A stretch of 64,000 nt of DNA from an uncultured Burkholderiales bacterium (lineage in GTDB: Bacteria; Actinomycetota; Acidimicrobiia; IMCC26256; JACPCJ01): NCBI GenBank assembly GCA_964615175.1, contig CAZTOV010000001.1, forward strand, positions 42,439 through 106,438, in the 5' to 3' direction. A program made the position numbers and the translations under genes. Below, piece by piece: positions 102 through 63,641 of the stretch. Below the pieces are notes generated by a model. It saw nothing but the letters and a program-made list of their open reading frames with translations, had not been told where the DNA came from and did no database searches. The number at the start of each line of letters is the position of its first letter. Within the stretch, counting starts at the first letter, position 1.

Positions 102-137
102 AGCGACTCGTCACGAGCGCTCGTTCGTGTACCTGGT
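102..137 (+). promoter_or_regulatory. Bipartite motif copy 1 (GCGACTCG-N15-CGTGTACCTGG); candidate ECF-type promoter of giant surface protein gene A
   Basis: Box1 at 103-110 and box2 at 126-136. Spacing is identical to the 7 other copies, while the spacer sequence is not conserved. Lies ~105 nt upstream of the ATG at 241. Confidence 0.5.
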
Positions 138-240
138 GTGGACCCAGCGATTCGACGCCGTGACGCCAGGGTGGGCGCTTCTCCCCGAGCCTGCCGACAC
201 CAGCAGGTAACCGCGGTGGCCGCGGGCGGCGGGTGAGCGA

Positions 241-3200
241 ATGGGCCTGACAGGCGGCAGCTACCGCAGCCCGAAGCGGCTCGTGATTTTCACGGCCGCC
301 GTCCTCGCGGCGCTCATCGTTTCGACGGTACCCCTTCCCGGGCAGCATGGGTTGGCTACGGTCTCTACGGCCCGAGCACAGGAGCCTCCTGAGGACGCGC
401 CGGAGGCAGTCTGGCGGGCCATGCGGCGGGACTGGCTCACCGGCTGGGACCGGCAGTCTCACGGTGAAGCTACCGACTTCGGGAAATTCACCGGTGTCGC
501 CTTTCCGAGCGCCACCGTCGGTTTCGCCACGCTCAACCCCGCCGGCGCGCAGGGTGACGGGCTCCTGAGGACAGGGGACGGGGGGTCGACCTGGGTCGGT
601 CTCCCCCAGGCGGAGAGCTTCAAGAGCCTTGACGCGTTGGGAGTCGCGTTCCTGGATGAGAACCACGGTGTGGTCGTCGGTGAGAAGGGTGGGATTACCA
701 CGACACTGGATAGCGGTGGGTCGTGGACACCCGGGGAGAGCCCTCCCGGGACCCCGGATCTCAAGGGCGTCGCCTATGCGAGCCTCGGGGTCGTCGTGGC
801 CGTCGGAGACGACCACACGATCTTGCGAAGTGGCGACGGGGGCGCGTCGTGGAAGGAGGTCCGGCACGACCCGACGGCGCCGGACCTGTTGGCGGTGGCG
901 TTCGCGCCCGACGCCCGGCAGACCGGCGTGGCCGTCGGTGAAGGCGGTGAGATGTTGTGGACAGGTGACGCCGGGCGTACGTGGACTGAGGTGGAGAGCG
1001 GGGTCGAGACGGCGCTTCGCGATGTGGCCTTCTTCGCGACCGACCCGGACGGCGCGGATCTGGGAGTGGCGGTGGGCGATGACGGTGTGATCCTGCGGAC
1101 CACCGACGGGGGCCAGAACTGGAGTGGGGAGGGCGTGCGGACCACCTTCGACGAGGTGGACCGCGACGAGCGCCCGGGTTTCCTCGGGGTGGCGCTGACC
1201 GACACGACCGGCGAGGAGGCTTCTCGTGTCGGCTACGTGGTGGGCGAGCGGCTGACCGTCCTCGAGATGCGCGATCAGGAAGGGTCCCGCTGGGTGCCGG
1301 CCCCGGTCGATGCACGGGCGCTCATCAAGACGAGCCCCTTCACCGGGTTCTCATTGGCGGGGAATCCGACGGAGCACCTCACGGCGGTGGCGGTCGGGCC
1401 GGCCCACACAGAGGAAGGCGAGCCGACCGCTGTGGCGGTGGGCAACCTCGGGGCTGTGGTCAAGCGGACGCCGCTTGACGGCGGCGAGCGACTCGTCAAT
1501 GACACGTGGTGGAGGTGCGCACCCGACGCTGTCGTCAGTCAGGCGCCTGACGCGGCCACCGAACAGGCGCCTGACGAAGTCACCGAAGCGGTGTTGTGCG
1601 ACGAAGGGGAAATGCCCATCCCGAGCGCAGAAGAGGGGACAGGCCCAACTCCGGCCGGCGAGTGCGCGTTCTCGTCGGGCCAAACCGGTGCTGAGCAATT
1701 GCCCTGCGTGGCGACCTGGCAACCTCGTCACGAGGGCGGCGAGGTTCCTGACCCCGATGGAAAGTTCCGTGAGGATACATCCCAAGAACTGTTCGTCGAT
1801 GAGAACTTCGACGAGGGGCGGCGGGTGGTGCTGCTGCGGCAGGAGAAGTCGAGCGGGGTGATCCGCGTCCTGCTCTTCGATCCGGACGGTCTCGTGCAGA
1901 AGGGGGTGGACGGGTTCGGCAACAGCGGGGAAGCGGAGTTCGCTGGTCCTAGCTTCTTCGGCTTCGAGACCGGGGTGGTCAACCTGTCGCACATCAAGAC
2001 CCGGTCGGGGCGGGGGATCCCGTCGCTGACCGACGTCAGGTTGAGCGCGTACGACCCCGGCAACCACCGATTGTTCATGGCGACGAACAACATGTGCCTG
2101 CCGACCGCGGGATGTCAGGTCGATCCGGCGATCACGTCGGTGAGCATCACGGGCGAGTTCGCGCCCGCGGTCACGACCATCCCGCGCGTCAACAGCGACC
2201 TGCGCCCCAGCCTGAGGGTCCAGAGCACGGCTTTCGATGCGGGCCGGGAGATGCTGTACGTCGTCACCGAGACGAGCCCCGTCCACGACCAGATCGTCGG
2301 CCTTCACACGCCCCAGGAAGCGGCCACGACGGTGCAGGTCACGTTGCACGCCTTCGACGCGGGCGACGATCCGGCGACGCCCGAGGTGGATGAGAGCGAG
2401 GACGGCGGCCTGGTGCGCCGGTGGGCGGTGCCGGTGGAGGACCGCGGGTGCCGGACCACGTTCAACCTGCCCGGCTTGGGGGTGAGCCACGACGGTGATT
2501 CCATCGCCTTCGCGTGCCAGGGCCACTCGACGCCGTATTTCATGAACCCGCCGTTCGAGCCCCACAAGATCGTCAACGTAAACCTCAACCTGCGTGGGCA
2601 ACGCCACCCGCGTGAGCTGCAACCGAACCTTCCGGGTGACGTGACGGTCGACGTGGAGCCGATCAGCGGTGGGCTGGGCTTCCAAGAGGGCCCCCCGTTC
2701 TTCACGCATGTGATCCCGGAGCGGGAGTTGCTGGCGTGGACCCAACCGAACAGCGGGGCCACGCTCTACGACTACGAGGCCGGCGGCTGGATCGGTTCGG
2801 TGCCGGTGCCCGGCATCCAGCACATGGAGGGCGACGCGAGGACGGGCCGCCTGTACGCGGCATGCAGCAAGTGTCTTCAGAACGGGACAGAGCCGGGGTT
2901 GGTCATGGCCGACACGGTCAATCTCCCGGTCGACGACCTGGCGGCCAGGGTCTCGCCCGAACCGCACGTCAACAATCCCGGCAACGACGAGGATATCTCG
3001 CCGGCGATGGCGGTGGTGAGCCCGCGTCGCGGTGAGTCCGGCTCGACGCGATTGTTGGCCGCGGACCACTCGAAACCGTCGGTGCACATCTATGAGGACG
3101 CGGTGCCGCCGGCGCAGTTCCTCGAGAGCCCCGACCCCGATTCGGCGACCCGCGACATCGACGAGGCGGAGGCGTCGTCGGTGACGCGGATCGGTCGGGC

Positions 3201-5715
3201 GTCGGGGTATGGCGCCCGGGTGTGGTGGACGGGCCTGTCGACCGTGCTTCCGGGCGTGAAAGTGGATCCCTCGAAGACCAGTACCGCCGAGCCGTCTCTC
3301 ACCTACGACTGGCTGCTCAACAATCCGGGCAGTGAAGGCCGGAACTTCTTCGGTCCGCATCTGAGCGCGACTCCGGCACCACCCCATTCCGGGCAGCGGG
3401 AGTTGCGGTTGGGTGCGGTTCGTGACGCGGTGTTGGAGAACGGGTTGTCGGAGGCGGAGGCGGTGGGGTTGTTCTACGACGGGGGGCCGGCCGATTCGGA
3501 GGGTGGTGGCACGGGCGAGGATGTGAAGCGCCGGCGTGGTGGCGATGTGCACGATTTCTTCGACGCGCAGGTCGACGGGTTCTGTCGGAACGCGCCGTTC
3601 GGGTTCGGTGACCGGGAGGAGTGCGCGGAGTTCCAATCCAGGTTCCAGGACCACCACGAGGGCGATCCCGGCGATCCCGACGACGACGGGTTCGATGGGG
3701 AGTTCGGGCCGTATGAGGCGGGGTTCGAGGAGTTCGTGGATCGGGGGATGCGGGAGGTGGATGGTGACCGCCGCTTGGAGGGCGGGTGCCGGCCGCGTGA
3801 GGACCGCAACGGCGACGGGCGGATCGACGAGCAGGACAACAACGGGCGGTTCGAGCAGGCGGACGACCCGGACACGCAGGGTGTGAACGAGGCGGACTGC
3901 TGGGAGGAGTTCGACGGCGACGACCCGCGCTGCGACGAGGATGCCGACGGCAACGTCGATTGCAGTGATCAGGGGAGTGTGGAGGAGGACGCGGGGGTGA
4001 CGTACGCGTCGGAGTGCGCGGACCCGGGGTCCAAGGACGCGTCGTTCGCCGGGTCACAGACGTCGTGTAAGCAGGCCGAGTTCGGTCGCACCGAGGCGAG
4101 CGCGCAGCTCGAGCCGCTGGTGTTCACCCCCCGCGACGGGTCGGAGGCGTCGACGAGCTTCTCGGTGGGGGCGTCGGGGTCGGAGACCCGGGTGTTCCGT
4201 GATCTCGACGAGGGGATGGTGGTGGAGGTGACGGCCACCGCCTCGGACGTGGAGGTGGGGGTGCCGGAGAGGGGGTCGTTGTCGATCGGGGAGGTGCGCA
4301 CGACCGCCCGCGCCAAGGCGAAGGGCCGGCCGGGGACGGCGGGTTCGTGGGTCGAGATCCTCTACGAGGACGTGGTGATCCGCGATGCGGAGGGCGAGAC
4401 CCGACTGGCGTGTGGCCGTTCGGACCCGAATGCGGGTGCTTTGGGGGCTGATCCCGAGGCGGGCGCCGACAACCTCGACCGGGACGGCGACGGCGAGGCG
4501 GACGGCGACGACGCCCTGTACGCGGCGGGGTTGACGCCCGACGAACGGTTCGGCGGCGACGACGGGGATGCGGCGGCGGTGGCGTGCGACCCGCATCGGG
4601 TGGTCGAGGTGATCAACTCGGTGTTCACCGATCGGGTGCGGGCGACGACCTCGGGTCGGGACATGCGGCCGAAGTTCATGGGGAGCCCGGGCGGGGCGCA
4701 GGCGATCGTGCAGCGCGACCCGGTGGACCAGATGTCGGACCAGGTGATCAACGAGATCTTCGGGCTGGAGGAGCTGCCGGGCCTCCAGTTGACGATCTAC
4801 AACGACGGGTTCCGCGCCAACCGCGTCCAGATCGACCTGGCGGCGGTGTTCGCCGAATCGAAATACCAGATCGGTGATCCCCGCGGCGAGGTGGTGGAGA
4901 CGCCGGGGTCGGTGACGGTCGAGTTGTCCGACCCGGCGGGAGCGCCGCTGGCGGGTGGCCAGTTCGCGCTGGTCGCCGACAGGAACGGTGACGGCGCGCG
5001 GGGGTCCGGCGACGCGGTCGAGGACCAGTGCACGACCGGCGCTGGGGGGACATGTGGCTTCGGCGAGGTGGACGCGGGGTCGTACCTGGTGATGCAGCGC
5101 TCCGCGCCGCCCGGCTTCCTGGCCGAGGGCGCGCCGGCGCCGGTGTTCGTCTCGCAGGGAGCGAGCCAGACGGTCAGTTTTGTGAACGCGCCGAACTCGG
5201 CGGCAGTCGAGGTGCGCCTCGTCGACCCGACAGGGAACCCGCTGGCGGGCGGCGAGTTCGCGCTCGTCGGCGACGTGGACGGCGACGCGGCGCTGGACCC
5301 GACCGATCGGGTGGCGGGCTCGTGTGCGACCGGCGGCGCGGGCACCTGCCGCTTCGACCAGGTGGCGCTGGGAGCGTACGTGCTGCACCAGGGCGCCGCG
5401 CCGGGGGGCCTTCAGACCGCGGACGACATCGCGTTCTCGCTCGCCAACCCAGGTCAGGTGGCGCGGATCACCGTGGTCAACGGGCCTTCGGTGGCGAGCG
5501 GACGGGTGGAGATCATCGAGATCATCCATTCGCGCCCGACCTCGTCGGGGGACAACCCGTTCTGGCTCACACAACTCCCCGGGGCGCTGGCAGCGATCCT
5601 GCTGCGCGGATGGCTGCAAGCGTTGCTCTTCGCCCTCACCGGCCTGCTGTTCGGCGCGCCCGCCTATTTGGCACACCGCCGACGCGAGCTGGAAATAGCC
5701 AAGGAGGCCAGCTGA
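241..5715 (+). CDS. Giant surface-anchored BNR-repeat / TSP3-like Ca-binding / Cna-B(SpaA)-like domain protein, paralog A
   Basis: 1824-aa ORF with an N-terminal hydrophobic signal/anchor (VIFTAAVLAALIVSTVPLPG). Five Asp-box motifs (TGDGGSTW, TLDSGGSW, SGDGGASW, TGDAGRTW, TTDGGQNW). Acidic D-x-D-x-D-G runs (DRNGDGRIDEQDNNG, DEDADGNVDC, DRDGDGEADGDD). Two C-terminal prealbumin-fold-like repeats (PAGAPLAGGQFALV..GSYLVMQRSAPPGF and PTGNPLAGGEFALV..GAYVLHQGAAPGG). C-terminal TM helix plus HRRRE tail. ATG 241 is the first start after an in-frame TAA at 208. Confidence 0.9.
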   Translation: MGLTGGSYRSPKRLVIFTAAVLAALIVSTVPLPGQHGLATVSTARAQEPPEDAPEAVWRAMRRDWLTGWDRQSHGEATDFGKFTGVAFPSATVGFATLNPAGAQGDGLLRTGDGGSTWVGLPQAESFKSLDALGVAFLDENHGVVVGEKGGITTTLDSGGSWTPGESPPGTPDLKGVAYASLGVVVAVGDDHTILRSGDGGASWKEVRHDPTAPDLLAVAFAPDARQTGVAVGEGGEMLWTGDAGRTWTEVESGVETALRDVAFFATDPDGADLGVAVGDDGVILRTTDGGQNWSGEGVRTTFDEVDRDERPGFLGVALTDTTGEEASRVGYVVGERLTVLEMRDQEGSRWVPAPVDARALIKTSPFTGFSLAGNPTEHLTAVAVGPAHTEEGEPTAVAVGNLGAVVKRTPLDGGERLVNDTWWRCAPDAVVSQAPDAATEQAPDEVTEAVLCDEGEMPIPSAEEGTGPTPAGECAFSSGQTGAEQLPCVATWQPRHEGGEVPDPDGKFREDTSQELFVDENFDEGRRVVLLRQEKSSGVIRVLLFDPDGLVQKGVDGFGNSGEAEFAGPSFFGFETGVVNLSHIKTRSGRGIPSLTDVRLSAYDPGNHRLFMATNNMCLPTAGCQVDPAITSVSITGEFAPAVTTIPRVNSDLRPSLRVQSTAFDAGREMLYVVTETSPVHDQIVGLHTPQEAATTVQVTLHAFDAGDDPATPEVDESEDGGLVRRWAVPVEDRGCRTTFNLPGLGVSHDGDSIAFACQGHSTPYFMNPPFEPHKIVNVNLNLRGQRHPRELQPNLPGDVTVDVEPISGGLGFQEGPPFFTHVIPERELLAWTQPNSGATLYDYEAGGWIGSVPVPGIQHMEGDARTGRLYAACSKCLQNGTEPGLVMADTVNLPVDDLAARVSPEPHVNNPGNDEDISPAMAVVSPRRGESGSTRLLAADHSKPSVHIYEDAVPPAQFLESPDPDSATRDIDEAEASSVTRIGRASGYGARVWWTGLSTVLPGVKVDPSKTSTAEPSLTYDWLLNNPGSEGRNFFGPHLSATPAPPHSGQRELRLGAVRDAVLENGLSEAEAVGLFYDGGPADSEGGGTGEDVKRRRGGDVHDFFDAQVDGFCRNAPFGFGDREECAEFQSRFQDHHEGDPGDPDDDGFDGEFGPYEAGFEEFVDRGMREVDGDRRLEGGCRPREDRNGDGRIDEQDNNGRFEQADDPDTQGVNEADCWEEFDGDDPRCDEDADGNVDCSDQGSVEEDAGVTYASECADPGSKDASFAGSQTSCKQAEFGRTEASAQLEPLVFTPRDGSEASTSFSVGASGSETRVFRDLDEGMVVEVTATASDVEVGVPERGSLSIGEVRTTARAKAKGRPGTAGSWVEILYEDVVIRDAEGETRLACGRSDPNAGALGADPEAGADNLDRDGDGEADGDDALYAAGLTPDERFGGDDGDAAAVACDPHRVVEVINSVFTDRVRATTSGRDMRPKFMGSPGGAQAIVQRDPVDQMSDQVINEIFGLEELPGLQLTIYNDGFRANRVQIDLAAVFAESKYQIGDPRGEVVETPGSVTVELSDPAGAPLAGGQFALVADRNGDGARGSGDAVEDQCTTGAGGTCGFGEVDAGSYLVMQRSAPPGFLAEGAPAPVFVSQGASQTVSFVNAPNSAAVEVRLVDPTGNPLAGGEFALVGDVDGDAALDPTDRVAGSCATGGAGTCRFDQVALGAYVLHQGAAPGGLQTADDIAFSLANPGQVARITVVNGPSVASGRVEIIEIIHSRPTSSGDNPFWLTQLPGALAAILLRGWLQALLFALTGLLFGAPAYLAHRRRELEIAKEAS

Positions 5716-14796: not shown

Positions 14797-14832
14797 CGCG
14801 ACTCGTCACCATCGCTCGTTCGTGTACCTGGT
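14797..14832 (+). promoter_or_regulatory. Bipartite motif copy 2 (GCGACTCG-N15-CGTGTACCTGG) upstream of giant surface protein gene B
   Basis: Box1 at 14798-14805 and box2 at 14821-14831. It is part of the duplicated upstream region, which also conserves the AT-rich tract CATTTCAAAGGAAAAGTTGTTGTGG. Confidence 0.5.
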
Positions 14833-14933
14833 GTGGACCGAGAGATTCGACTCGTGGTGCAGGGTGGGTGCTTCTCGCCGAACCTGCCACCGCCAGCAGG
14901 TGACCGCGGTGGCCGCGAGTGTCTAGTGAGCGA

Positions 14934-32203: not shown

Positions 32204-32210
32204 GGCCCGG

Positions 32211-34763: not shown

Positions 34764-34784
34764 GGGTCCTCAACTCGGCACGTG

Positions 34785-47465: not shown

Positions 47466-47508
47466 GGAGCGATGTGGTGACATCGCGCTCCCCCCTCAGA
47501 CTCCTGAA

Positions 47509-47524
47509 CCCCCCGTTCGGGGGA
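47509..47524. repeat. Variant of the C5/G5 palindrome family (CCCCCCGTTCGGGGGA)
   Basis: Located ~45 nt after the M23 stop, in the context TGAACCCCCCGTTCGGGGGATGG. Confidence 0.7.
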
Positions 47525-47569
47525 TGGACGGGCAGCAGGCCATCCGTACGGTCTGAGTCGAGGGAGGGG

Positions 47570-51600: not shown

Positions 51601-51636
51601 ACCGACCCGTTTCGCCTCCCCGCACGTGTACCTGGG
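51601..51636 (+). promoter_or_regulatory. Bipartite motif copy 4 (ACCGACCCG-N15-CGTGTACCTGGG) upstream of LPXTG gene / ECF sigma operon
   Basis: Begins 11 nt after the PBP stop and lies 53 nt upstream of ATG 51689. The ECF sigma gene follows the LPXTG gene on the same strand. Confidence 0.55.
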
Positions 51637-51688: not shown

Positions 51689-52225
51689 ATGCAGAAACTC
51701 ACCATTTTTCTGGCCGCCACCGCCGTTGCCTTCCTCGGGATGGCCGGCACGGCCGCAGCCGACGGGCACGAAGCAGCCTGTGACCCCATCCCCACCACCG
51801 AAGACGCCGACAAGGAAGGGGAGGAGATGGGCTCACCGAGCGAGGACTCGGGCCCCGTCGGCCCCGTCGTCGGAGGTCTCCGTGACACGTGCCTGAGCAA
51901 TTCGGAGGACGGACCGAGCCCGGGTGTGCTCTGCGGCGTGGCTGACGGTGTCATTCGCGTGACCGACCAGGCGAGCGAGGACATCGGCGCAGGGATCACG
52001 GGGAGTGACCAGTACGACGAGTTCTGTGTCGCCGGCGACGACGATGACGACGACGGTGATGATGACGACGACGACTCCAACGGCGGAAACGAGAACGACG
52101 GCGTCGCCGCCGCCCAGCAGCAGAGCGCCGGCGCCGACGGGACCCTTCCCCGCACGGGTGGCTTCTCGGTCGCCGGGTTCGGTCTCGTGTCGATCGGCGC
52201 TCTCGTCCGCCGCCTGATCGCATAG
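51689..52225 (+). CDS. LPXTG-anchored acidic cell-wall protein
   Basis: Signal peptide MQKLTIFLAATAVAFLGMAGTAAA, acidic core (DDDDDDGDDDDDD), and the C-terminal sorting signal LPRTG + FSVAGFGLVSIGALV + RRLIA. Confidence 0.8.
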   Translation: MQKLTIFLAATAVAFLGMAGTAAADGHEAACDPIPTTEDADKEGEEMGSPSEDSGPVGPVVGGLRDTCLSNSEDGPSPGVLCGVADGVIRVTDQASEDIGAGITGSDQYDEFCVAGDDDDDDGDDDDDDSNGGNENDGVAAAQQQSAGADGTLPRTGGFSVAGFGLVSIGALVRRLIA

Positions 52226-52316
52226 CCAGAACCGCAGGTCGCCCGCCGATTGCGAAGCCCCCGGTAATCGCGCGTGGTCATCCGGCCATAGAGAGGGTGA
52301 GAGCGCGCATCCGGGG

Positions 52317-52919
52317 GTGAGTGGTGCAGGACGGCGAGCGAGGAGAGTCGTGGCGGCGACCGACGAGCGGTGGTTCGAAGACCTCTGGGATGCGCACGCC
52401 GACCAGGTCAGGGCGTATGCACAGCGGCGGAGCGACGACGAGACCGCCGGCGATGTCGTGGCCGGCACCTTCCTCGTGGCCTGGCGACGGCGCGACGAGG
52501 TGCCCGACGACCCACTGCCCTGGCTCTACGGCGTCGCCCGACGCGTCCTCGCCGACCAGCGCCGCACCCACGGCCGCCAGGCTCGCGTCGCCGAGCGCCT
52601 CGGCGACACGACGAGCGACCGTTCGCCATCCGATCCGTCGGACCAGGTCGCCCAGCGTGACGCCGTGCTCAGGGCGCTCGACCAACTCGGCGAGGCCGAC
52701 CGCGAGGCCCTCCGGCTCGGCTGTTGGGAGCAGCTCACGCCGAAGGAGGCGGCACGCGTGCTCGGATGCTCGGCACCCACGTTCAACGTCCGGCTGCACC
52801 GCGCCCGGCGCCGTCTCCGCCGTCACCTCGACGGATCGCTCGACTCCGGCCGGTGTGGCTCGTCGAGTGTTCAGGACGCCGATGAGAGTCCCGCGCGTGG
52901 CGAGAGGAGCAACCGATGA
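52317..52919 (+). CDS. ECF (group 4) sigma-70 family factor
   Basis: Region 2 (AGDVVAGTFLVAWRRRDEVPDDPLPWLYGVARRVLADQRR) and region 4 HTH (LTPKEAARVLGCSAPTFNVRLHRARRRLRRHL). About 200 aa. Confidence 0.85.
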   Translation: MSGAGRRARRVVAATDERWFEDLWDAHADQVRAYAQRRSDDETAGDVVAGTFLVAWRRRDEVPDDPLPWLYGVARRVLADQRRTHGRQARVAERLGDTTSDRSPSDPSDQVAQRDAVLRALDQLGEADREALRLGCWEQLTPKEAARVLGCSAPTFNVRLHRARRRLRRHLDGSLDSGRCGSSSVQDADESPARGERSNR

Positions 52920-54172
52920 CCGCTGATGAGCGCATCGACGAGCATCTCCGGGCTGCCAACCCCGTCCTCGAGGACGAGGCGGGGGGATGGGCCGACTCGC
53001 CTGAGGGGCGCGAGGCGTTCGACGGCGTGATGCGCATGGCCGCGCTGGGCGACGCCGGTGAGCCCTCGCGCGGCGCTCCCCGGCGCGCCCGAGCGTGGCC
53101 CCGCCGGCTCGCGCTGGCCGGGGTGGCTGCGGTGGCGCTGGCGGCGCTCGGCATCTCGCTCGCGAATCTCTGGGACGGCGACGACGGTGGCGACGCGTTC
53201 GTGGTGTCCGACGAAGGCGAGTTCTTCGCGGTGAGAGGAGGCGAGTCGGACGACTCCGGCTTGGAGGATGGGCCCCCGTTGTTGGCGATGCCGGTCGGCC
53301 CCGACGCGGCTCATTCCCACGAGGACTCCTCCCCGCAACGGGTCATGTTGAGCCCGAGAGCAAGCGGAGCGGGGTCGTCGGCACCCGGCATCGCCCTCGA
53401 GGCAGGCGCAGGCGGAGGCGAGGCGGGCGGCGCCGCGTCGACGTCCGGCACCCGGGAACCGGCCCTCGGCCGCGGTCCCGGAGCCGAGATCGTCAAGACC
53501 GCCCAACTCGAGATCGACGTCGAGGAACGGGGGATCGAGCGGGCCCAGGCCGAGGTGCGCGGCACCGTCGACCGAGCCGGCGGGTTCGTCGCGAGTTCCG
53601 AGCGGTCTCCCCGATCGGCCACGTTGACGGTGAGGATCCCGGCCGACCGCTTCGAAGCCGTCCTCGACGAGGCCGAAGCCCTAGGTGAGGTCCGACAGCA
53701 GTCGGTGAGCGGGGAGGACGTCAGCGCCGAGCTGGTCGACGTCGAAGCCCGGTTGCGCCACTGGCAGGCCCAGGAGACCGTGCTCCTCGAGCTGATGGAG
53801 CAGGCGACGACGGTGTCAGAGTCGATCGACGTGCGCAACGAGCTGGCTCCCGTTCAGGAGACCATCGAGCGCCTCGAAGGTCGCCTGCGAGCCCTCGAGG
53901 ACGACGTGGAGTTCTCGACCGTCACCCTCTTCCTCGTCGATCCCGATGTCGAGGTACCCGGTGAGCCCGAGCCCGAGCCCGACGAAGGCTGGTTCTCGGA
54001 GGTGTGGGACGACGCCACCGATCTCGGGAGCGGCATCGTGCGCGGGACGGCGATCGCTCTCGGGGCGCTCGTGCCGATCGCCGTGCTGTGGGTCGCGCCG
54101 CTGGTGGGAATCGCGTGGCTGATCCAGCGACGCCGGACCGGGTCCTCGATGCGTGACGAGGACCCCGCCTGA
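52916..54172 (+). CDS. Membrane protein with DUF4349-like extracytoplasmic coiled-coil domain; candidate anti-sigma partner
   Basis: ATGA overlap with the sigma gene stop. Short cytoplasmic N-segment, TM (LALAGVAAVALAALGISLANLW), a DUF4349-like segment (KTAQLEIDVEE..TLTVRIPADRFEAVLDE..VDVEARLRHWQAQE..VEFSTVTLFL) and C-terminal TM helices. Confidence 0.65.
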   Translation: MTADERIDEHLRAANPVLEDEAGGWADSPEGREAFDGVMRMAALGDAGEPSRGAPRRARAWPRRLALAGVAAVALAALGISLANLWDGDDGGDAFVVSDEGEFFAVRGGESDDSGLEDGPPLLAMPVGPDAAHSHEDSSPQRVMLSPRASGAGSSAPGIALEAGAGGGEAGGAASTSGTREPALGRGPGAEIVKTAQLEIDVEERGIERAQAEVRGTVDRAGGFVASSERSPRSATLTVRIPADRFEAVLDEAEALGEVRQQSVSGEDVSAELVDVEARLRHWQAQETVLLELMEQATTVSESIDVRNELAPVQETIERLEGRLRALEDDVEFSTVTLFLVDPDVEVPGEPEPEPDEGWFSEVWDDATDLGSGIVRGTAIALGALVPIAVLWVAPLVGIAWLIQRRRTGSSMRDEDPA

Positions 54173-54261: not shown

Positions 54262-55065
54262 ATGGCCGCGACGCAGGCTCGTGACGAGCGGGGCGAGCGG
54301 GGCGAGCCCGCACGGTCGCCGACGAACGAGCTGCCGCCCGCCGCATTCGACTTCGCAACGGTCCGCGACGGCGTGGCTCCGGGCATCGGCCGTCACATCC
54401 TCGTGGTCGACGGCGACGCCGACGACCGCCGGCGCATCAGTCGAACCCTGGAGTTCCAGGGTTTCGCGGTCACGACCGTGTCCCGCATCGACCACGGTCG
54501 GGAGGTCCTCGACCCTGGCCGGGTCGACCTCGTGGTGTTCGATCCCGCGGCCGATGGCGAATGGCCCGAAACGGTCGTTCGCCTCCGCCAGGAGCTTCAC
54601 CTTCCCGTGATCGTCGTGAGCCACGGTGCCGCGGAAGGAGATCGCGTGATGGCGCTGACGCTCGGCGCCGACGACTACCTGGTGAAGCCGCTCTCCACCT
54701 TGGAGCTCGCGGCGCGCGTGCTCGCCGTGTTGCGTCGCTACGACGATCGTGGGTCTCGTGTCGACATCCTCTCGTTCGGTGACATCGAGATCGATCGGAC
54801 CGCCCATGAGGTGAGGGTGCACGGCCACCGGGTGGAGCTGACGCCCAAGGAGTACGACCTGTTGGTCACCCTGGCCGGCCGACCGGGCCGTAGCTGTGGC
54901 CGTGATGAGTTGCTCGGGCGGGTGTGGGGATCGTCAGCCGAATTCCAGGATCCGGCGACGGTGACCGAGCACGTCCGGAGGCTCCGCAAAAAGCTGGGGG
55001 AGGACGCCGAGTCCCCCCGACACCTCGTGACGGTGCGGGGCGCCGGCTACCGCTGGGAACCGTAG
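54262..55065 (+). CDS. OmpR/PhoB-family response regulator (orphan; atypical acidic pocket)
   Basis: Receiver domain (ILVVDGDADDRRRI..DLVVFDPAADG..GADDYLVKP) plus winged-helix domain (LTPKEYDLLVTLAG..HVRRLRKKLGED..LVTVRGAGYRWEP). No histidine kinase gene is adjacent. A ~45-aa N-terminal extension makes the start uncertain. Confidence 0.85.
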   Translation: MAATQARDERGERGEPARSPTNELPPAAFDFATVRDGVAPGIGRHILVVDGDADDRRRISRTLEFQGFAVTTVSRIDHGREVLDPGRVDLVVFDPAADGEWPETVVRLRQELHLPVIVVSHGAAEGDRVMALTLGADDYLVKPLSTLELAARVLAVLRRYDDRGSRVDILSFGDIEIDRTAHEVRVHGHRVELTPKEYDLLVTLAGRPGRSCGRDELLGRVWGSSAEFQDPATVTEHVRRLRKKLGEDAESPRHLVTVRGAGYRWEP

Positions 55066-55237
55066 GACCGGCCGGCGATCCCGAACCCCTCGACTTCCTC
55101 CGGGGTGAGGACGTGGCAGCCTCCACGCTCCGGGTCCGGCTCCTCCCCGGCTCTCCAGAGTTGCCTTCAGCCACGTGCCGGAGCGGATGCTCGCAGTCGA
55201 GTGCGACTGCCGGTGACGGTCGTGTTCGAAGTGCAGC

Positions 55238-55285
55238 TTGCCTCCCGGGCGGTCCTGGGGGAGGCCATTCCAGCCCGGGAGGCAA
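55238..55285. repeat. 13-bp-stem hairpin in response regulator / S8 intergenic region
   Basis: TTGCCTCCCGGGC (55238-55250) pairs with GCCCGGGAGGCAA (55273-55285) around a 22-nt loop. Lies ~40 nt downstream (minus sense) of motif copy 5. Confidence 0.75.
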
Positions 55286-55321
55286 CGCTGCCTTTGCGCA
55301 CCGGGGGGCCCAGTGCGTCCA

Positions 55322-55357
55322 CCCAGGTACACGGTCGAGAGCCCCGAAAGTGTCGGT
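55322..55357 (-). promoter_or_regulatory. Bipartite motif copy 5, minus strand (ACCGACACT-N15-CGTGTACCTGGG)
   Basis: The reverse complement of 55322-55357 reads ACCGACACTTTCGGGGCTCTCGACCGTGTACCTGGG. It points away from the S8 gene toward the hairpin and the response-regulator 3' end. No convincing ORF lies downstream. Confidence 0.45.
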
Positions 55358-55423: not shown

Positions 55424-55459
55424 CCCGACCCGTTTCCTACCCTCGATCGTGCACCTGGG
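55424..55459 (+). promoter_or_regulatory. Bipartite motif copy 6 (CCCGACCCG-N15-CGTGCACCTGGG) immediately upstream of S8 peptidase
   Basis: Box2 at 55448-55458 has one T-to-C change. AGGAGGG at 55461-55467 and starts at 55469/55472 follow directly, implying a very short leader if this is a promoter. Confidence 0.45.
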
Positions 55460-57873: not shown

Positions 57874-58208
57874 GGCCGGCGGTTCGACGGTCACCCGGCT
57901 GGTCGGGACGGCACGGCGATCGGCGGCCCGAAACGAGCATCACCCGGGGGAGCGGCGCCGGTTGCGGCGTTGCGGTGGGCCCGGTCGAAGCGGGTCGGCG
58001 CGGCTCGTAGAAGCCCCGCAGTGGGCCCCGGTGGCATCCCCGCTTCGGGGTTCTGGGCCCTCGCCGGATCCTTTGGGGGCCCTGGCTGCGATCACTCTGC
58101 GTCCACGTACCTGGTCCGAGCCTTCGCACGGGTCGCGCTCCGCGTCGTTCGTGCGGGCGGGCAGCCCGTTTCTTTGGGTCGCGACCGACTCTTTCGGCCC
58201 TCTCATTC

Positions 58209-59456
58209 GTGACCCTGGAGGGGGAGGCATCGGCCCGAAGCTGGTTGAGGCCGGTGCAGTGCCGTCGCCGAGGCAGGGGAGCGAGGAGGCTGACCGTGGA
58301 CCGACAGGAGCAGGCAGACCACAGAACGTCACCGCCCACTCACGGAGCGGGGGGTGAGATCTTCACGGTCGAGGCCCTGTGGCACGAACACGGGGCGCGC
58401 CTCGTGCGCCTGGCCCGCCGCCTGCTCGACGATCGGGGTTCGGCTGATGCCGCCAGCCACGCCGTGTTGGTGCGGGCGGCCGCATGGCTCGATCTCACCG
58501 CGCGGCCCGTCCCCGAGTCGGCGGCCTGGTGGTGGCTCGAGCGGCTCTGCCACGACGTCTCGCGTGAGATCGGCGACCACGGCGTCGACCCGGCATGGGT
58601 GACCGGTGAACCGCTGCCTCGGTCGGTTCCCGAACGACTGCGAGCCCGTCTCCGATCGTGGGCGCTCGAGACGACATCGAGGGCTTCGGAGTCCGCTGGT
58701 CCGATCAGCCAGGCGAGACACCGCGACCGCGCGCGCTGGCGGGAGCTGTTCGACCGCAAGCTGCGCGATCTTCCCGTCGTGGTGCTCCTCCCCGGACTGG
58801 TCCGGAGAGCCGCCGCCGGCACAGGTCGGGCGGCGCGGGCGGCGTGGCGCCGGTCGGAGGCCCTCTCTCCGGCGAGCATGTCGACCCAGCGGGTGGTCGG
58901 GATGTTCGCCGCCGGTCCCGGCGTGCTGGAGGCGGCAGCCGCCTTCACGGTTGCGTTGGCCGTGGGGAGCGGGCTTTCCGGGTCGGTCACCCCGCCGGCG
59001 CCCCCGCCGGTGCCGCTCGCCCAGCGCGTCGAGGTGGCCATGGCGCAGTCGGAGCTTGAGCCACCACCCGACGAGCCCGTCGAAGTCGAGGTCGCCCCGC
59101 CCCCCGTCGCGCCGGAGCCGGCACCCGAGCCCGACGCGACCACGGAGCCTGCCCCTGATCCGGAGCCGGAACCGGAGGCCGACCCCCTGCCCGTCGCCGC
59201 CACCGTGTCCGCCGATCCGGTCAAGAACGTCGAAGAGCCGGTCCAGGAAGACGATTGGGAAGGTGGGAAGCGCTACCGCACCCCGAGCGAGCGGGTGAGC
59301 GTCGACGCCGATGGTGATGGCGAAGAGGATGCCTTCGCGACGACACCCACCGCGGGTTGGAACTGTCCCAATGACCCAGACAAACGGAGACCTGGCAGCG
59401 AGTACGTGTGTCCAGTGCTTGAGGAGTCAGGCATTCCAACAGAGGAGATGGGCTGA
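58209..59456 (+). CDS. Hypothetical membrane protein with sigma-region-2-like N-terminus and Pro/Glu-rich extracytoplasmic segment
   Basis: ALWHEHGARLVRLARRLLDDRGSADAASHAVLVRA is weakly similar to sigma-70 region 2. A central TM (VVGMFAAGPGVLEAAAAFTVALAVG) is followed by a PEP-rich tract. Start uncertain. Confidence 0.4.
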   Translation: MTLEGEASARSWLRPVQCRRRGRGARRLTVDRQEQADHRTSPPTHGAGGEIFTVEALWHEHGARLVRLARRLLDDRGSADAASHAVLVRAAAWLDLTARPVPESAAWWWLERLCHDVSREIGDHGVDPAWVTGEPLPRSVPERLRARLRSWALETTSRASESAGPISQARHRDRARWRELFDRKLRDLPVVVLLPGLVRRAAAGTGRAARAAWRRSEALSPASMSTQRVVGMFAAGPGVLEAAAAFTVALAVGSGLSGSVTPPAPPPVPLAQRVEVAMAQSELEPPPDEPVEVEVAPPPVAPEPAPEPDATTEPAPDPEPEPEADPLPVAATVSADPVKNVEEPVQEDDWEGGKRYRTPSERVSVDADGDGEEDAFATTPTAGWNCPNDPDKRRPGSEYVCPVLEESGIPTEEMG

Positions 59457-59504
59457 GTCATGCGTTCCCGTTGGCTTGCGCTCTCCACGGGCGTCGCGAA
59501 GCCT

Positions 59505-59777
59505 TCACATGTTGTCAATGCAGAAGAAGTAGTCCCACGTGATCCCGAAGGCTCCGCCGGGATTGGGCCCGAAGGTTCCTCCGGGCCCACACGTCCAATC
59601 GTTGCAATACGACACGACGGTCTCGGTGGTGGTGGTGCTGTCGTTCCCGACCTCGACGTAGCCGCACGGAGCGGGATGCTCGTCGGCCTGGGCCGACGTG
59701 GTCGAAAGACCGATGCCGAGCGCCGACGTCACGGCGACGGTGGTGGCGATCAGGCGGATCAGCGCGGCTCGGGTCAC
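59505..59777 (-). CDS. Small secreted cysteine-rich peptide (90-aa precursor)
   Basis: GGAGGAGGA lies 6 nt upstream of the GTG at 59777. Signal peptide MTRAALIRLIATTVAVTSALGIGLSTTSAQA|DEH. The mature ~58 aa contain 4 Cys and an aromatic C-terminus (ITWDYFFCIDNM). Confidence 0.65.
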   Translation of the reverse strand: MTRAALIRLIATTVAVTSALGIGLSTTSAQADEHPAPCGYVEVGNDSTTTTETVVSYCNDWTCGPGGTFGPNPGGAFGITWDYFFCIDNM

Positions 59778-59847
59778 CGGTCGTCCTCCTCCATCACGTC
59801 CGTCTCAACGGTGCGTCAACGACACCGTACGTGCCCTGGCTCGACCC

Positions 59848-59873
59848 CTCCCTCCCCCGGTCGGGGGAGGGAG
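59848..59873. repeat. Extended member of the C5/G5 palindrome family (11-bp stem)
   Basis: CTCCCTCCCCC-GGTC-GGGGGAGGGAG, located between the divergent small-peptide gene and the PucR-like gene. Confidence 0.8.
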
Positions 59874-59910
59874 CCCACATCTCCTCGTCGTCCCGAGGGG
59901 GTGGCCGGTC

Positions 59911-61236
59911 ATGGCTGAGGCCGAGAACGGCGCCGGGGGCGAGGTCGGGTGGCTCGCCCTCGCGGCCATGGTGTCGCTCACCAACGATGCCGACACGGTG
60001 GTCGCCGAGGTGGTCGAGCGAGTACGCGAGCACGAGGCCGCCGACGAGGCGGTGGTCGCCGGCGTGGTCGAGGGATCCGACGTCGAGGTGCTGGTGCGCG
60101 AGGTCGCGGGGTTGCTGGGTGAGGCGCTCCGGGCCCGCCGCCCACTCGACGCCTCCGAGACCGCGGTGGTCTCGGAGAGGGCCGACGGCATGATCGCCAC
60201 GGGTGCGCCGCTCGAGATCGTCCGCCAGGCGGTCCACGCCACCTGCGCGGTGGTGCTCGACCGCCTCGCGACGGCCGGGCAGGCGCGTCCGGCCGAGGCG
60301 CCACCCGAGCTGCTCGGGCGCCTGTTCGGCATCGTCGCCGACTGCGAGTTCGACCTCCTCGGCGCCATCGGCGCGGCGGCGCGCAGTGTGGGCGACGACG
60401 ATGCCACCCGCGACGAGCGCCTGCGCGAGGCGTTCCTGCACCGGGTGCTCGAGGGGCCGGTCCACGACCCCGTGGCCACGGCTCGGCAGGGCCGCGCGCT
60501 GAAGCTCGACCTGACCCCGCCCTTCGGCTTGGTGCTCCTGATCGAGCCCCTCGGGTGGACCGACGACCCCTCGACCGAGTCGTTCGAGGAGCAGGTGCTC
60601 CGCTGCCGCCGCCGGCCCGAGCAGCGCCTGCTGCCGGCGGTGTTCGTCGAACCCGACCCGGCGGTGCCCCAGAGCGCCATCCTCGTCGTGCCGGCCCACG
60701 CGGGGGAGGCGGCCGAAGCGGTAGAGGAGGCGCTGATCGAGGAGCGCGACGCGTCGGGGCTTCTCTTCGTCACGGCGACCGCTGCCAGCATCGGGGAGAT
60801 TCCCGCCGTCTACCACCGCATGCGCCGGATCGTCCCGGTCATGCCCCGGTGCGCGCGCCACCTGGACGCGGTGCCCACGCTCGACGCGGTGCTGCCCTAC
60901 TGGTCGGCGGAGCGACTCCCCGACGTGTGGGCCGAGTACCTGCTGCGCGCGGAGGTGGGCCCGCTCATGGCGAGCGTGCGGACCAGCCGGCTCGTGCACA
61001 CCTGGCTCCTCTTGGTCCGCGAGCGCCTCACCGACGCCGAGGCCGCCGAGCGGCTCCATGTGGCCCCCGGCACGGTGCGGAAGCGCCGGAGGACGATCGA
61101 GGGGTTGACCGGGCGCCGCCCGGGCCCGGAGTCGTTCCACGCGCAGCTCGCCTCCTACGTCTACGAGTTGTGGGAGCCGGACCTGCCGGTCCCGGGCGAC
61201 CCCTGGTGGACGGGCGACGATGCGTCGGCGGACTGA
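59911..61236 (+). CDS. PucR/CdaR-like transcriptional regulator
   Basis: The C-terminal HTH LTDAEAAERLHVAPGTVRKRRRTIEGLTG resembles the PucR-type HTH, and the N-terminal domain is helical. ATG 59911 is preferred over the ORF-track 59698, which overlaps the minus-strand peptide gene. Confidence 0.55.
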   Translation: MAEAENGAGGEVGWLALAAMVSLTNDADTVVAEVVERVREHEAADEAVVAGVVEGSDVEVLVREVAGLLGEALRARRPLDASETAVVSERADGMIATGAPLEIVRQAVHATCAVVLDRLATAGQARPAEAPPELLGRLFGIVADCEFDLLGAIGAAARSVGDDDATRDERLREAFLHRVLEGPVHDPVATARQGRALKLDLTPPFGLVLLIEPLGWTDDPSTESFEEQVLRCRRRPEQRLLPAVFVEPDPAVPQSAILVVPAHAGEAAEAVEEALIEERDASGLLFVTATAASIGEIPAVYHRMRRIVPVMPRCARHLDAVPTLDAVLPYWSAERLPDVWAEYLLRAEVGPLMASVRTSRLVHTWLLLVRERLTDAEAAERLHVAPGTVRKRRRTIEGLTGRRPGPESFHAQLASYVYELWEPDLPVPGDPWWTGDDASAD

Positions 61237-61262
61237 TCCACCCGCCCTCGCCGGCTCCGCTC

Positions 61263-61282
61263 GCTCCCCCGATCGGGGGAGC
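61263..61282. repeat. 20-bp perfect palindrome GCTCCCCCGATCGGGGGAGC containing the family 16-mer
   Basis: Located 27 nt after the PucR-like stop. Could act as a terminator hairpin. Confidence 0.9.
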
Positions 61283-61447
61283 CGCCGTCTGGCGTCGGGA
61301 TCAAGGGGCGCCGATGGAGTGGTTTCCGCACGTTCTCGACGCCGAAACGTAGCGGCGCGCGCCCTCGACCCGCTCGCTCGCTCTTCGTACGGTGCGGCCG
61401 GAGTTCGAAGGAGGTGACGACGACTCGGCATCCAGCACGGTCGCACG

Positions 61448-62350
61448 TTGCCTCGTAGACGCCGCTCCGCGGCCCCGTCACGCGGGGACCGCGCGAGCCA
61501 CGAGTGGTGGAGGACCTCACTGTTGCCTTCGCAGGTCGACCAAGCACAACGGCACATCGAAGAGGTGCGCGCCCGCGAGGAGGTTCCCGACGCGGACGCG
61601 TATCGCGCCCTCCTGCGCGCCTGCGCCGAGGAACCCCAGCCCGACATCGCGGTGCAGACGGTGGCCGAGATGGGCCACGACGGCATCACCGTCGGTGCTG
61701 CCGACCACGACGCCCTCCTGATCGCTCACCTGTTCCGGGGGCGCGCCGAGGATGCCGAGGCCTATCTCCGTGCGCTCCCATGGGGGGTCGTCACCCCCGA
61801 CCACTACCGGTGGGTCCTCTGGGCGTACGCCGTCCGGGGTCGCGTGGACGAGGTCGAGCGGCTCTTCGAGGAGTTCGACGGCTCGCCCGTCCTCCCCGAC
61901 GACGACTGCCGGCTCTTGCTCCTGTCCACGTTGACCCAGGGTTGCCATGCCGCCCGCGCCCGCCGCTGGTACTCGCGGTTCGTCCCCCGCGACCGCAAGC
62001 CCGAGCCGCTGTTCGTCGCGCGCCTCATCGACGCCCACGGCCACCCCGATCACCACGAGGAGCTGGTCGCCATCTACGAGCGGTTCGGTGACGAGGTCGG
62101 CCGCCATCCTGAGGTCGCCGCCGCGCTCGTGCACGCCTTCGCCCTTGCCGACGATCCCGTACGCGCCGAAGAGCTGCTGCGCCTGGCCCTCCGGGTTGTC
62201 CGAGACCCCGACGTGTGCGAGGAGATGTTCCTCGAATGCGTCACTGCCTACCAGCGGGTCGGCCGGGAGCGGGAGACCGACACCGGCGAATCCGTCGAGC
62301 GCCTCGCCGCGCTGGCCAACGAGAAGGACGTCGCCGTCGAGTACCTCTGA
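61448..62350 (+). CDS. Helical-repeat protein with PPR/TPR-like ~35-aa repeats
   Basis: Repeats include AYRALLRACAEEPQPDIAVQTVAEMGHDGITVGAA, DHDALLIAHLFRGRAEDAEAYLRALPWGVVTP and DHYRWVLWAYAVRGRVDEVERLFEEFDGSPVLPD. They follow the PPR pattern (aromatic-x-x-L-hydrophobic..G..deA..lf.eM...G..P). Start uncertain. Confidence 0.55.
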   Translation: MPRRRRSAAPSRGDRASHEWWRTSLLPSQVDQAQRHIEEVRAREEVPDADAYRALLRACAEEPQPDIAVQTVAEMGHDGITVGAADHDALLIAHLFRGRAEDAEAYLRALPWGVVTPDHYRWVLWAYAVRGRVDEVERLFEEFDGSPVLPDDDCRLLLLSTLTQGCHAARARRWYSRFVPRDRKPEPLFVARLIDAHGHPDHHEELVAIYERFGDEVGRHPEVAAALVHAFALADDPVRAEELLRLALRVVRDPDVCEEMFLECVTAYQRVGRERETDTGESVERLAALANEKDVAVEYL

Positions 62351-62814: not shown

Positions 62815-62850
62815 ACCGACCCGAATCACGCCCTCGTTCGTGTACCTGGA
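62815..62850 (+). promoter_or_regulatory. Bipartite motif copy 7 (ACCGACCCG-N15-CGTGTACCTGGA)
   Basis: Box1 at 62815-62823 and box2 at 62839-62849. It sits between the response-regulator remnant and the 62874 ORF. Confidence 0.5.
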
Positions 62851-62873: not shown

Positions 62874-63413
62874 ATGCCGCGGACGAGCGTCAACCAAGTC
62901 AAGCGAGTGGGGATGGCGAATATGGGGGAGCAGGACTTCAGGACACGTGCCCGGCAGGGTGCCGATGCCCGTCTCGATGAGGCGCTCCGGCAGCTGCTCG
63001 AGGTGGCCGACGACCTTCAGCAGAACCGTGGGGTGGCCCTCGATCTTGTGATGGAGGATCTCTTGGATGTGGTGATGACGAGGCCGCTTCACGACCTGCG
63101 GATCCAGGAGGTCTACATCGAGGCCACCCGTTCCCATCCCGGGCGTTCGGTCGTCGTCACAGCCACCGGTCTTGATGACGTCGGCGATCCGGAACCGTTG
63201 GACGTCATTCATGCGGAGGATGTCTCACCGTCGACGCTCGCCACCCAACTCCTGATGCGTTTGCGCGACCGGGGGCTTGGAGGTGTTCGTCGAGTCGTGT
63301 CGAGCGCCGGTACGAACCTCGTCGGCGTGGTTCCGGCGGTATTTCCCGATGCCGGATGGCTTCCGCTCGGAACGGGTGAACGTCCATCGTGGCTCACGCT
63401 TCCCGAGGTGTGA
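62874..63413 (+). CDS. GDPEPL-family protein: IS256-transposase-core-derived, catalytic residues lost
   Basis: EVYIEATRSHPGRSVVVTATGLDDVGDPEPLDVIHAEDVSPSTLATQLLMRLRDRGLGGVRRVVSSAGTNLVGVVPAVFPDAGW aligns position by position with the 47570 fragment and the IS256 core. The D of lDatY is replaced (IEATR) and SDahxG becomes SSAGTN. The start may be ATG 62913 or 62922. Confidence 0.55.
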   Translation: MPRTSVNQVKRVGMANMGEQDFRTRARQGADARLDEALRQLLEVADDLQQNRGVALDLVMEDLLDVVMTRPLHDLRIQEVYIEATRSHPGRSVVVTATGLDDVGDPEPLDVIHAEDVSPSTLATQLLMRLRDRGLGGVRRVVSSAGTNLVGVVPAVFPDAGWLPLGTGERPSWLTLPEV

Positions 63414-63605
63414 ACGCGCCACCCATACGCCATTCTCACTCGCAAAACTGGGGAGGCGACCAACCATTCCCCACGCAGGAGGCGGCGTGTCGGCGTGTCC
63501 GCACCAGCGGTCCGACGGCTTCGGGGCGGTTCGAACGCCCCGCCCGTCGAAGACGTCCATCCCTGGTGACCGCAACCGGCGCGGAACAGAAAAACAGGGA
63601 GCGTC

Positions 63606-63641
63606 ACCGACCCGTTTGGGGGGTCGGAACGTGTACCTGGG
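63606..63641 (+). promoter_or_regulatory. Bipartite motif copy 8 (ACCGACCCG-N15-CGTGTACCTGGG)
   Basis: Box1 at 63606-63614 and box2 at 63630-63640, lying 29-54 nt upstream of ATG 63670/63694. Confidence 0.5.

Follow-up and report, generated by a model that had tools for sequence, protein, structure and literature searches.

A Bipartite Promoter-Like Motif Upstream of Envelope Genes Suggests a Lineage-Specific Extracytoplasmic Function Sigma Regulon in an Uncultured Actinobacterium

A stretch of 64,000 nucleotides (nt) of contig CAZTOV010000001.1 from an uncultured member of the Acidimicrobiia (assembly GCA_964615175.1), referred to here as the window, carries nine intergenic copies of a bipartite element, motif a (CCGACCCG-N15-CGTGTACCTGG). 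Motif a is, in our judgment probably, a promoter of the extracytoplasmic function (ECF) type, and its two boxes would be the -35 and -10 elements read by an alternative sigma factor. It would define a lineage-specific regulon. In the window, its members would be two giant BNR/SpaA-domain surface proteins, an M23 and an S8 peptidase and a sortase-anchored LPXTG protein, together with a sigma-like protein anchored in the membrane, two small proteins of transposase origin and a short structured RNA. The canonical ECF sigma factor encoded at 52350-52919 most likely does not read motif a and appears to have a promoter of its own, motif b. The leading candidate for the cognate factor would be an ECF-like family that is confined to this lineage and whose C-terminal extension spans the membrane, represented by gene 58296-59456 in the window and by an ECF of 410 amino acids (aa) in the related locus L132. 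The explanation as a whole, i.e., an ECF-type promoter of a lineage-specific regulon whose cognate factor is not the sigma factor encoded at 52350, is evenly poised between right and wrong in our estimate.

Form, Spacing and Position of Motif a

In the window, which has a G+C content of ~70%, motif a was searched for as SCGACYCS-N15-CGTGTACCTGG with at most two mismatches. The pattern matched eight times, with copies of the form SCGACNCN-N15-CGTG(T/C)ACCTGG, while shuffled sequences predict 0.03 matches, and the eight copies lie within 1 nt of the positions given by the initial annotation. Searched alone with at most one mismatch, CGTGTACCTGG was found 12 times (0.76 expected). The spacing between the boxes is rigid, as had been noted: CGAC-N18-CGTGTACCTGG, with at most two mismatches in the second box, gave nine matches, and each other spacing from 15 to 23 gave 0-2. 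The second box, CGTG(T/C/A)(A/C)CC, is present in every copy. A ninth, weaker copy at 58185-58218 (CCGACTCT-N15-CGTGACCCTGG) had been overlooked. A weak match to a position weight matrix (PWM) at 38752 was dropped, since it lies within a coding-like open reading frame (ORF) on the minus strand.

Not all copies are independent. Copies 1 and 2 sit in a duplicated upstream region of 240 bp that is 86% identical, as revealed by BLAST with 250 nt on either side of all copies, and the genes behind them are paralogues with 84% aa identity. Therefore, these two copies count as one independent event. In all other pairs, the likeness was confined to the two boxes. The spacer, initially described as free, indeed differs between copies and between orthologous sites, but some bias remains, with a T-rich beginning (TTTCG) and a yCTCG stretch 3-8 nt ahead of CGTG.

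All nine copies are intergenic, and eight face a same-strand start codon 13-105 nt downstream. Among the eight strong copies, seven point to a gene with its start codon at this distance, in agreement with the initial annotation (Table 1). Pfam and NCBIfam searches served to identify the genes. The BNR proteins (1,824 aa each), both peptidases (M23 and S8) and the LPXTG protein evidently carry a signal peptide or a membrane anchor; hence, most downstream products are secreted or envelope proteins, as had been proposed.

Conservation of Motif a Within and Outside the Lineage

The exact degenerate pattern was scanned in one genome per species for 185,579 species, among which the source genome is not represented. 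This yielded 40 single matches in unrelated taxa, with ~35 expected according to a back-of-envelope estimate, and multiple copies were found in none of these species genomes. Each of the 40 matches falls within an ORF of 450 nt or more, in nearly every case with a coding-like G+C distribution over codon positions. Outside the lineage, the exact pattern occurs only at chance level. No PWM match of at least 17 bits was present in 80 unrelated metagenomic ECF loci that served as a control (~290 kb).

For the window proteins, the closest relatives come solely from a small number of SRA-derived assemblies. Every contig of the lineage that was examined is rich in motif a, with about one copy per 4-7 kb. 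In L003, where the ECF is 88% identical to that of the window, the copy 5' of the LPXTG gene is kept as CCGACCCG-N15-CGTGTACCTGT with a changed spacer. The syntenic relative L132, with the order response regulator, S8 peptidase, sigma-like gene, PucR-like gene and TPR gene, has five motif-a sites: 5' of the S8 gene, a divergent copy on the minus strand, a weak variant 5' of the sigma-like gene, one before the ECF gene and one before a gene for a TIG-domain protein. In L129, a perfect copy precedes the gene of a giant Calx-beta protein, of which the window encodes no homologue. At orthologous sites, the boxes are nearly invariant, the spacers drift and the flanks are diverged or unrelated, which argues for selection on a cis-regulatory site rather than for the remnant of a mobile element.

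Copies 5 and 6 form a back-to-back pair, 68 bp apart. On the minus strand, the stretch 55205-55319, 3' of copy 5, contains ~100 nt that are conserved in L132:4585-4699 (minus strand) and L003:20-134 (minus strand), and it is kept in L003 even where the neighboring genes differ. A 16-bp hairpin with five compensatory pairs among the three sequences was observed. This stretch is a candidate for a small RNA or a shared bidirectional terminator. A leaderless ORF of 51 codons behind copy 5 was ruled out, since the indels among the orthologues are not multiples of three. Scans of the window for Rfam families and tRNA genes gave no hits.

Likeness of Motif a to ECF-Type Promoters

Motif a combines features of ECF-type promoters, namely two boxes at a fixed distance, an intergenic position, co-orientation with downstream genes and retention at orthologous positions. 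The sigma-L regulon is related to the cell envelope, and the sigma-L -35 box is TGAACC. Motif a is bipartite like the sigma-L promoters of Mycobacterium tuberculosis, and its CGTGTACC matches their positions -14 to -9. For these promoters, Lin et al. described a -10 element T-12 G-11 N C/A A G after C-14 G-13, with CGTGTCAG in P-sigL, and the CG dinucleotide is preferred by at least 8 of 10 ECF holoenzymes of this organism (PMC6372665). In contrast to sigma-L promoters, motif a carries CCGAC(C) as its -35 box, lacks the AAC core, has CC instead of AG at -8/-7 and contains five further invariant bases (CTGG plus G/T). A sigma-L orthologue was not found. The ECF promoter pattern claimed initially holds for the CGT-type -10. 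The -35 box, (C/G)CGAC(C/T/A)C, shares only AC with AAC; since -35 boxes vary among ECF groups, this speaks neither for nor against an ECF-type promoter. The literature search for the literal motif a and for SigL/TGAACC returned nothing usable.

If CG-TGTA is placed at -14 to -9 by analogy with sigma-L of M. tuberculosis, transcription would start 3-4 nt after CCTGG. For the S8 peptidase gene, a near-leaderless mRNA had been suggested on the basis of a gap of ~10 nt between motif and start codon. The gap is 13 nt, and the Shine-Dalgarno sequence GGAGGG begins 3 nt 3' of copy 6; the predicted leader would be ~10 nt long and would begin with GGAGGG. The L132 orthologue is arranged alike.

By inspection, no sigma-A-type -10 element (TANNNT) was seen in or 3' of motif a, and the aligned copies showed no tandem direct repeats with a periodicity of 10-11 bp; the boxes CCGACCCG and CGTGTACC are dissimilar. 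Since no TANNNT is visible and the boxes are not repeats of each other, an OmpR/PhoB-type operator ahead of a housekeeping promoter is unlikely.

The Neighboring ECF Sigma Gene and Motif b

Gene 52350-52919 was the sole canonical ECF sigma gene detected in the window with an ECF-family hidden Markov model. Its start had been set at GTG 52317, for which an exact protein look-up gave no match. The recorded protein P0001 begins at 52350, which is probably the true start. Among the NCBIfam models, the generic superfamily model alone passed its cut-off. The family is large, with more than 4,000 matches.

Motif b (GGTAAT-N15-GGCCATA) occurs once in the window, directly 5' of this gene. With a divergent spacer, it was present 5' of the ECF gene in all six DUF4349-linked relatives (L001, L003, L045, L046, L048 and L004; 57-99% identity). 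A wider family sample drew on 80 metagenomic loci with ECF homologues 40-55% identical. The loose form GTAA-N(15-18)-GNCA was found on the coding strand upstream of 50 of 81 family members, compared to 1 of 81 on the opposite strand, 0 of 86 in coding sequences and a mean of 1.7 after shuffling. An unbiased count of 4-mer dyads in 75 independent loci ranked GTAA..GACA first (36 vs 1), and motif-a dyads such as CGAC..CGTG were not enriched (3 vs 3). Motif a was absent upstream of the DUF4349-linked relatives L004 and L046 (57-61% identity) and of the 80 metagenomic homologues; in L048, a degenerate version lies 30 nt 5' of motif b. The L132 locus, the only visible part of its genome, encodes a different ECF, has neither an ECF-DUF4349 pair nor a DUF4349 gene, and keeps its five motif-a sites.

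ECFs usually autoregulate, and members of an ECF group tend to have a conserved target motif in common (Casas-Pastor et al. 2021, PMC7826278). Since motif b is adjacent to the gene and conserved in the family, it is parsimonious to assume that the sigma factor encoded at 52350 reads motif b, which judging from its conservation is the family-typical and probably autoregulatory promoter of the ECF gene. As in autoregulated ECF/anti-sigma operons (PMC7826278), motif b is bipartite and conserved upstream of family members, and the like is true of motif a for the family of 58296-59456; in contrast, motif a is not conserved with the family of the 52350 sigma factor.

Since motif a is followed in turn by the LPXTG gene, by motif b and by the ECF gene, a sigma cascade is suggested in which the canonical ECF operon may be a downstream target. 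The 52350 gene would probably receive read-through from motif a at 51602, giving a two-promoter cascade, and no obvious terminator was seen by inspection on the way from this motif-a copy to the ECF gene. The locus resembles sigE-cseA-cseB-cseC of Streptomyces coelicolor in that an ECF gene is followed by the gene of an extracytoplasmic or membrane protein and by an OmpR-type regulator gene. It differs in that no sensor kinase gene is adjacent and in that the second gene encodes a DUF4349 protein instead of the lipoprotein CseA. The best NCBIfam matches of the regulator 54262-55065 were PhoB, MtrA and CseB, all far below their cut-offs. A published link between DUF4349 and ECFs was not found in the literature search. 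In L046, which carries the 61%-identical ECF-DUF4349 locus, GTAAACCTTTCG-N15-TGTGTACCGG (L046:1023-1130, minus strand) precedes a second, divergently transcribed ECF gene (164 aa); its -10 region resembles that of motif a.

A Membrane-Anchored Family with Homology to Sigma Region 2

The 386-aa protein encoded by 58296-59456 has an N-terminal domain resembling sigma region 2. Beyond it, a predicted hydrophobic transmembrane helix at residues ~197-224 is followed by a Pro-rich region, and a conserved Cys motif is present at the C terminus. Its family is rare, with 12 representatives among 1.84 billion proteins. A profile of 14 members aligned to region 2 of the L132 ECF with an hhalign probability of 96% (E 3e-9, residues 22-100) and more weakly to the 52350 family (23%, E 9e-4). 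A profile search against PDB sequences gave no meaningful match. In L132, the canonical ECF of 410 aa carries Pfam regions 2 and 4, beyond which come a hydrophobic segment, a Pro-rich stretch and a Cys motif; the C-terminal Cys motif is common to both proteins. A motif-a copy stops 41 nt short of the start of the L132 ECF gene, which occupies the position of the LPXTG-ECF-DUF4349 genes of the window.

All five family members with 39-59% aa identity and readable upstream DNA are preceded by motif a (Table 1). It was absent upstream of the 29%-identical member in L131, where CCGGACAT, a typical motif-b -10 box, lies at the contig edge (L131:1-30), ~140 nt upstream of the start; this may be a coincidence or a hint of a change in promoter type across the family. 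The rarity of the family parallels the narrow distribution of motif a, and the large 52350 family goes with motif b. This correlation is suggestive only.

This family leads among the candidates; 58296-59456 and the 410-aa ECF of L132 both lie directly behind motif a. That it reads motif a, through 58296-59456 in the window and through the 410-aa ECF in L132, whose orthologue may be encoded outside the window, is nevertheless a tentative assignment to which we give somewhat less than an even chance. Among the modes of ECF regulation, C-terminal extensions rank second in frequency (PMC7826278). The extension of the L132 ECF resembles those of Cys-rich actinobacterial ECF287 and of ECF263 with its transmembrane helices, and 58296-59456 shares region 2 homology and a C-terminal Cys motif with the L132 ECF. 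In contrast to these ECFs, 58296-59456 has no detectable region 4 and would need release from the membrane, or a partner, to act as a sigma factor.

The gene 58296-59456 belongs to a four-gene module present in four loci (window 58296-62350, L129:697-4732, L130:6478-10862 and L132:7053-11071). Behind the gene of the region-2-like protein there is always a small antisense gene, then the gene of the PucR-like protein with its C-terminal helix-turn-helix (HTH), and then that of the TPR/PPR-like protein. By pure analogy, this arrangement recalls SigO-RsoA of Bacillus subtilis. A split, signal-released sigma factor of comparable logic, limited to a poorly sampled actinobacterial lineage, would combine -10 recognition by 58296-59456 after membrane release with -35 recognition by the PucR-like protein 59698-61236; we regard this as very improbable. 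Unlike in SigO-RsoA, the region-2-like protein is predicted to be membrane-anchored and the HTH protein is PucR-like, with HTH_30 outscoring Sigma70_r4_2.

Alternative Explanations

The initial annotation had assigned motif a to the sigma factor at 52317 (start probably 52350). In such a scheme, this factor would be held by the DUF4349 protein as its anti-sigma factor, would read motif a, would autoregulate via the copy at 51602 and would drive the cell-surface genes around it, while motif b would be read by another factor. The 52350 gene encodes the only canonical sigma factor of the window, seven of the nine motif-a copies lie within 18 kb of this gene, and motif a precedes the LPXTG-ECF-DUF4349 unit here and in L003, with the weak variant near motif b in L048. 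Moreover, autoregulation from the nearest promoter is not obligatory: the sigE promoter of S. coelicolor is not a target of sigma-E and depends on the adjacent regulator CseB (PMC6767563). However, it is motif b that lies directly 5' of the gene and is conserved in its family, motif a is missing upstream of the distant homologues, and it persists in L132 alongside another ECF in place of the ECF-DUF4349 pair. We consider this assignment unlikely and prefer a cognate factor other than the 52350 sigma. Such a factor might also be a sigma factor or activator encoded beyond the window and unrelated to the 58296-59456 family, with the local regulators as mere members of the regulon. The view is limited to 64 kb, the density of motif a in contigs of the lineage suggests a large regulon, and 58296-59456 has no demonstrable region 4. 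On the other hand, a canonical ECF gene stands directly behind motif a in L132, the rare sigma-like family co-occurs with motif a in all five homologues, and positive evidence for any other factor was not found. An outside factor is therefore rather doubtful in our view, though it has a modest chance of being correct.

Readings in which motif a is no promoter at all, or not by itself, fare worse. It could be the operator of the orphan OmpR-type regulator 54262-55065, as had been offered as an alternative, or of the PucR-like protein 59698-61236, activating an overlapping promoter. The response regulator gene is a conserved neighbor of the divergent pair of motif-a copies, both here and in L132, and follows the DUF4349 gene in L003, the PucR-like gene is conserved in the module of four loci, and CseB, acting at the sigE promoter, sets a precedent for a regulator encoded beside an ECF gene (PMC6767563). 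The two boxes are unlike each other, however, and inspection revealed neither the repeats that are a hallmark of OmpR/PhoB sites nor a TANNNT element in or after motif a. With the S8 start codon 13 nt after motif a, only the CGTG.ACC box is left to serve as the -10 element, and this box resembles those of ECF rather than sigma-A promoters. The operator reading is thus poorly supported and quite improbable. That the copies are remnants or outward-firing ends of mobile elements, such as a terminal repeat of the IS256 type, spread by transposition, is hardly credible. In its favor, IS256-derived gene fragments follow two of the copies, two copies stand back to back, and the spacers retain some likeness between copies. 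Yet, likeness beyond the boxes was detected only in the one gene duplication, every copy is intergenic with an orientation that follows the genes, the boxes are nearly invariant against diverging spacers also at orthologous sites, and neither a complete element nor a target-site duplication was seen. The initial preference for a promoter over a mobile-element remnant is consistent with these findings.

Several points weigh against the explanation favored here, i.e., an ECF-type promoter read by a factor other than the 52350 sigma, possibly from the 58296-59456 family. The promoter function of motif a is deduced from sequence, the AAC core found in typical ECF promoters is missing from its -35 box CCGAC, and its invariant 11-nt -10/discriminator block exceeds the usual length. 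As for the neighboring sigma factor, seven of nine copies cluster within 18 kb of its gene, and the sigE precedent makes the adjacency of motif b strong evidence for, but not proof of, a target of this sigma factor. As for the candidate family, 58296-59456 has no Pfam sigma match (Sigma70_r2 E 2.1), and a region 4 is unsupported at residues 98-200 (hhalign E 0.29 with the L132 ECF and 0.15 with the 52350 family). Its AlphaFold model is of low confidence, with a predicted local distance difference test score of 48, and too poor for a fold search. Being predicted as membrane-anchored, this protein may not be a working sigma factor, and an orthologue of the 410-aa ECF of L132 was not found in the window. 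Finally, since motif a is frequent (about one per 4-7 kb), its presence before 58296-59456 and the L132 ECF gene may mean mere membership in the regulon.

Implications

The specific motif, the lineage and the gene set are new, while an ECF-type regulon signature in itself is a known kind of feature. If the explanation is true, motif a provides a regulon signature for an almost unsampled lineage of high-G+C Gram-positive bacteria and connects giant adhesin-like surface proteins with peptidases of the cell wall and with a sortase substrate through one alternative sigma factor. The locus is also a cautionary case: having its own family-typical promoter, the sigma gene closest by is not the one that fits best. 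Two features stand out, namely two different ECF-type promoters in tandem before one sigma operon and the link to a rare region-2-like membrane protein. Both would remain within known principles unless the reading as a split or tethered sigma factor is true. The rare membrane-anchored family offers a testable lead to unusual sigma control, and the unusually long invariant -10/discriminator block, CGTGTACCTGG, would lend itself to studies of how bases 3' of the -10 element are read by ECF sigma factors.

Further Features of the Window

The positions of motif copies and genes are listed in Table 1.

Table 1. Motif copies and genes in the window and in related loci (nt positions; 5' and 3' refer to the strand given).
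Feature	Position	Strand	Remarks
Motif a copy 1 (GCGACTCG-N15-CGTGTACCTGG)	103-136	+	105 nt 5' of giant BNR/SpaA-domain surface protein gene 241-5715
Motif a copy 2	14798-14831	+	5' of paralogous giant BNR/SpaA gene 14919-20390
Motif a copy 3	45820-45853	+	50 nt 5' of M23 peptidase gene 45903-47465
IS256 (Transposase_mut) fragment gene	47462-48091		Directly after M23 peptidase gene
Penicillin-binding protein gene	49710-51590
Motif a copy 4	51602-51635	+	54 nt 5' of LPXTG protein gene; kept in L003
LPXTG protein gene	51689-52225		Small acidic protein with C-terminal LPRTG and membrane anchor
Motif b (GGTAAT-N15-GGCCATA)	52263-52290	+	Directly 5' of ECF sigma gene
Canonical ECF sigma gene	52350-52919	+	189 aa (P0001)
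DUF4349 protein gene	52916-54172	+	Presumed anti-sigma factor; translationally coupled to ECF gene
OmpR/PhoB-family response regulator gene	54262-55065	+	No adjacent kinase gene; orthologues in L003 and L132
Motif a copy 5	55323-55356	-	No protein-coding gene in front; orthologous copies in L132 and L003
Motif a copy 6 (CGTGCACCTGG variant)	55425-55458	+	13 nt 5' of ATG (55472) of S8 peptidase gene; orthologous copy in L132
S8 peptidase gene	55469/55472-56947	+	Two possible starts
Motif a copy 9, weaker (CCGACTCT-N15-CGTGACCCTGG)	58185-58218	+	77 nt 5' of gene 58296-59456
Gene of membrane-anchored protein with sigma region-2-like N-terminal domain	58296-59456	+	386 aa; candidate cognate or accessory factor for motif a
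Small antisense gene	~59505-59777	-	Between 58296-59456 and PucR-like gene
PucR-like regulator gene	59698-61236	+	C-terminal HTH; conserved beside 58296-59456-type gene in four loci; true start probably ~59860-59950
TPR/PPR-like repeat protein gene	61448-62350	+	Third member of conserved module
Motif a copy 7	62816-62849	+	25 nt 5' of IS256-derived small protein gene 62874-63413
Motif a copy 8	63607-63640	+	30 nt 5' of small protein gene with start at 63670 or 63694, which leaves the window
Canonical ECF gene of L132	L132:2160-3392		410 aa; Pfam regions 2 and 4, then hydrophobic segment, Pro-rich stretch and Cys motif
Motif a before family member in L129			CCGACACG-N15-CGTGACCCTGT
Motif a before family member in L132			GCGACACG-N15-CGTGACCCTGT
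Motif a before family member in L130			CCGCCCCT-N15-CGTGTACCTGT
Motif a before family member in L133			CCGACTCC-N15-CGTGTCCCTGT

The genes 47462-48091, 62874-63413 and 63670-63999 encode proteins of ~175-210 aa that derive from the central part of IS256/Mutator transposases. The products of 62874-63413 and of the gene from 63670 onward are paralogues (38-42% identity), each with a motif-a copy of its own, and distant kin of the Transposase_mut fragment. They look like domesticated fragments under the same control as the surface-protein genes.

Gene 241-5715 is followed by branched-chain amino-acid ABC transporter genes, and an IS481-family transposase gene (12082-13032, minus strand) lies between the two giant BNR/SpaA genes. 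The genes 43861-44496 and 44623-45258 were considered as paralogues and rejected, since BLAST gave no match between them. The region 31600-37100 has a lower G+C content (63-65% vs ~70%) and is possibly horizontally acquired; it holds the minus-strand ORFs 32211-34763 (850 aa) and 34785-36143 (452 aa), neither of which has a Pfam match.

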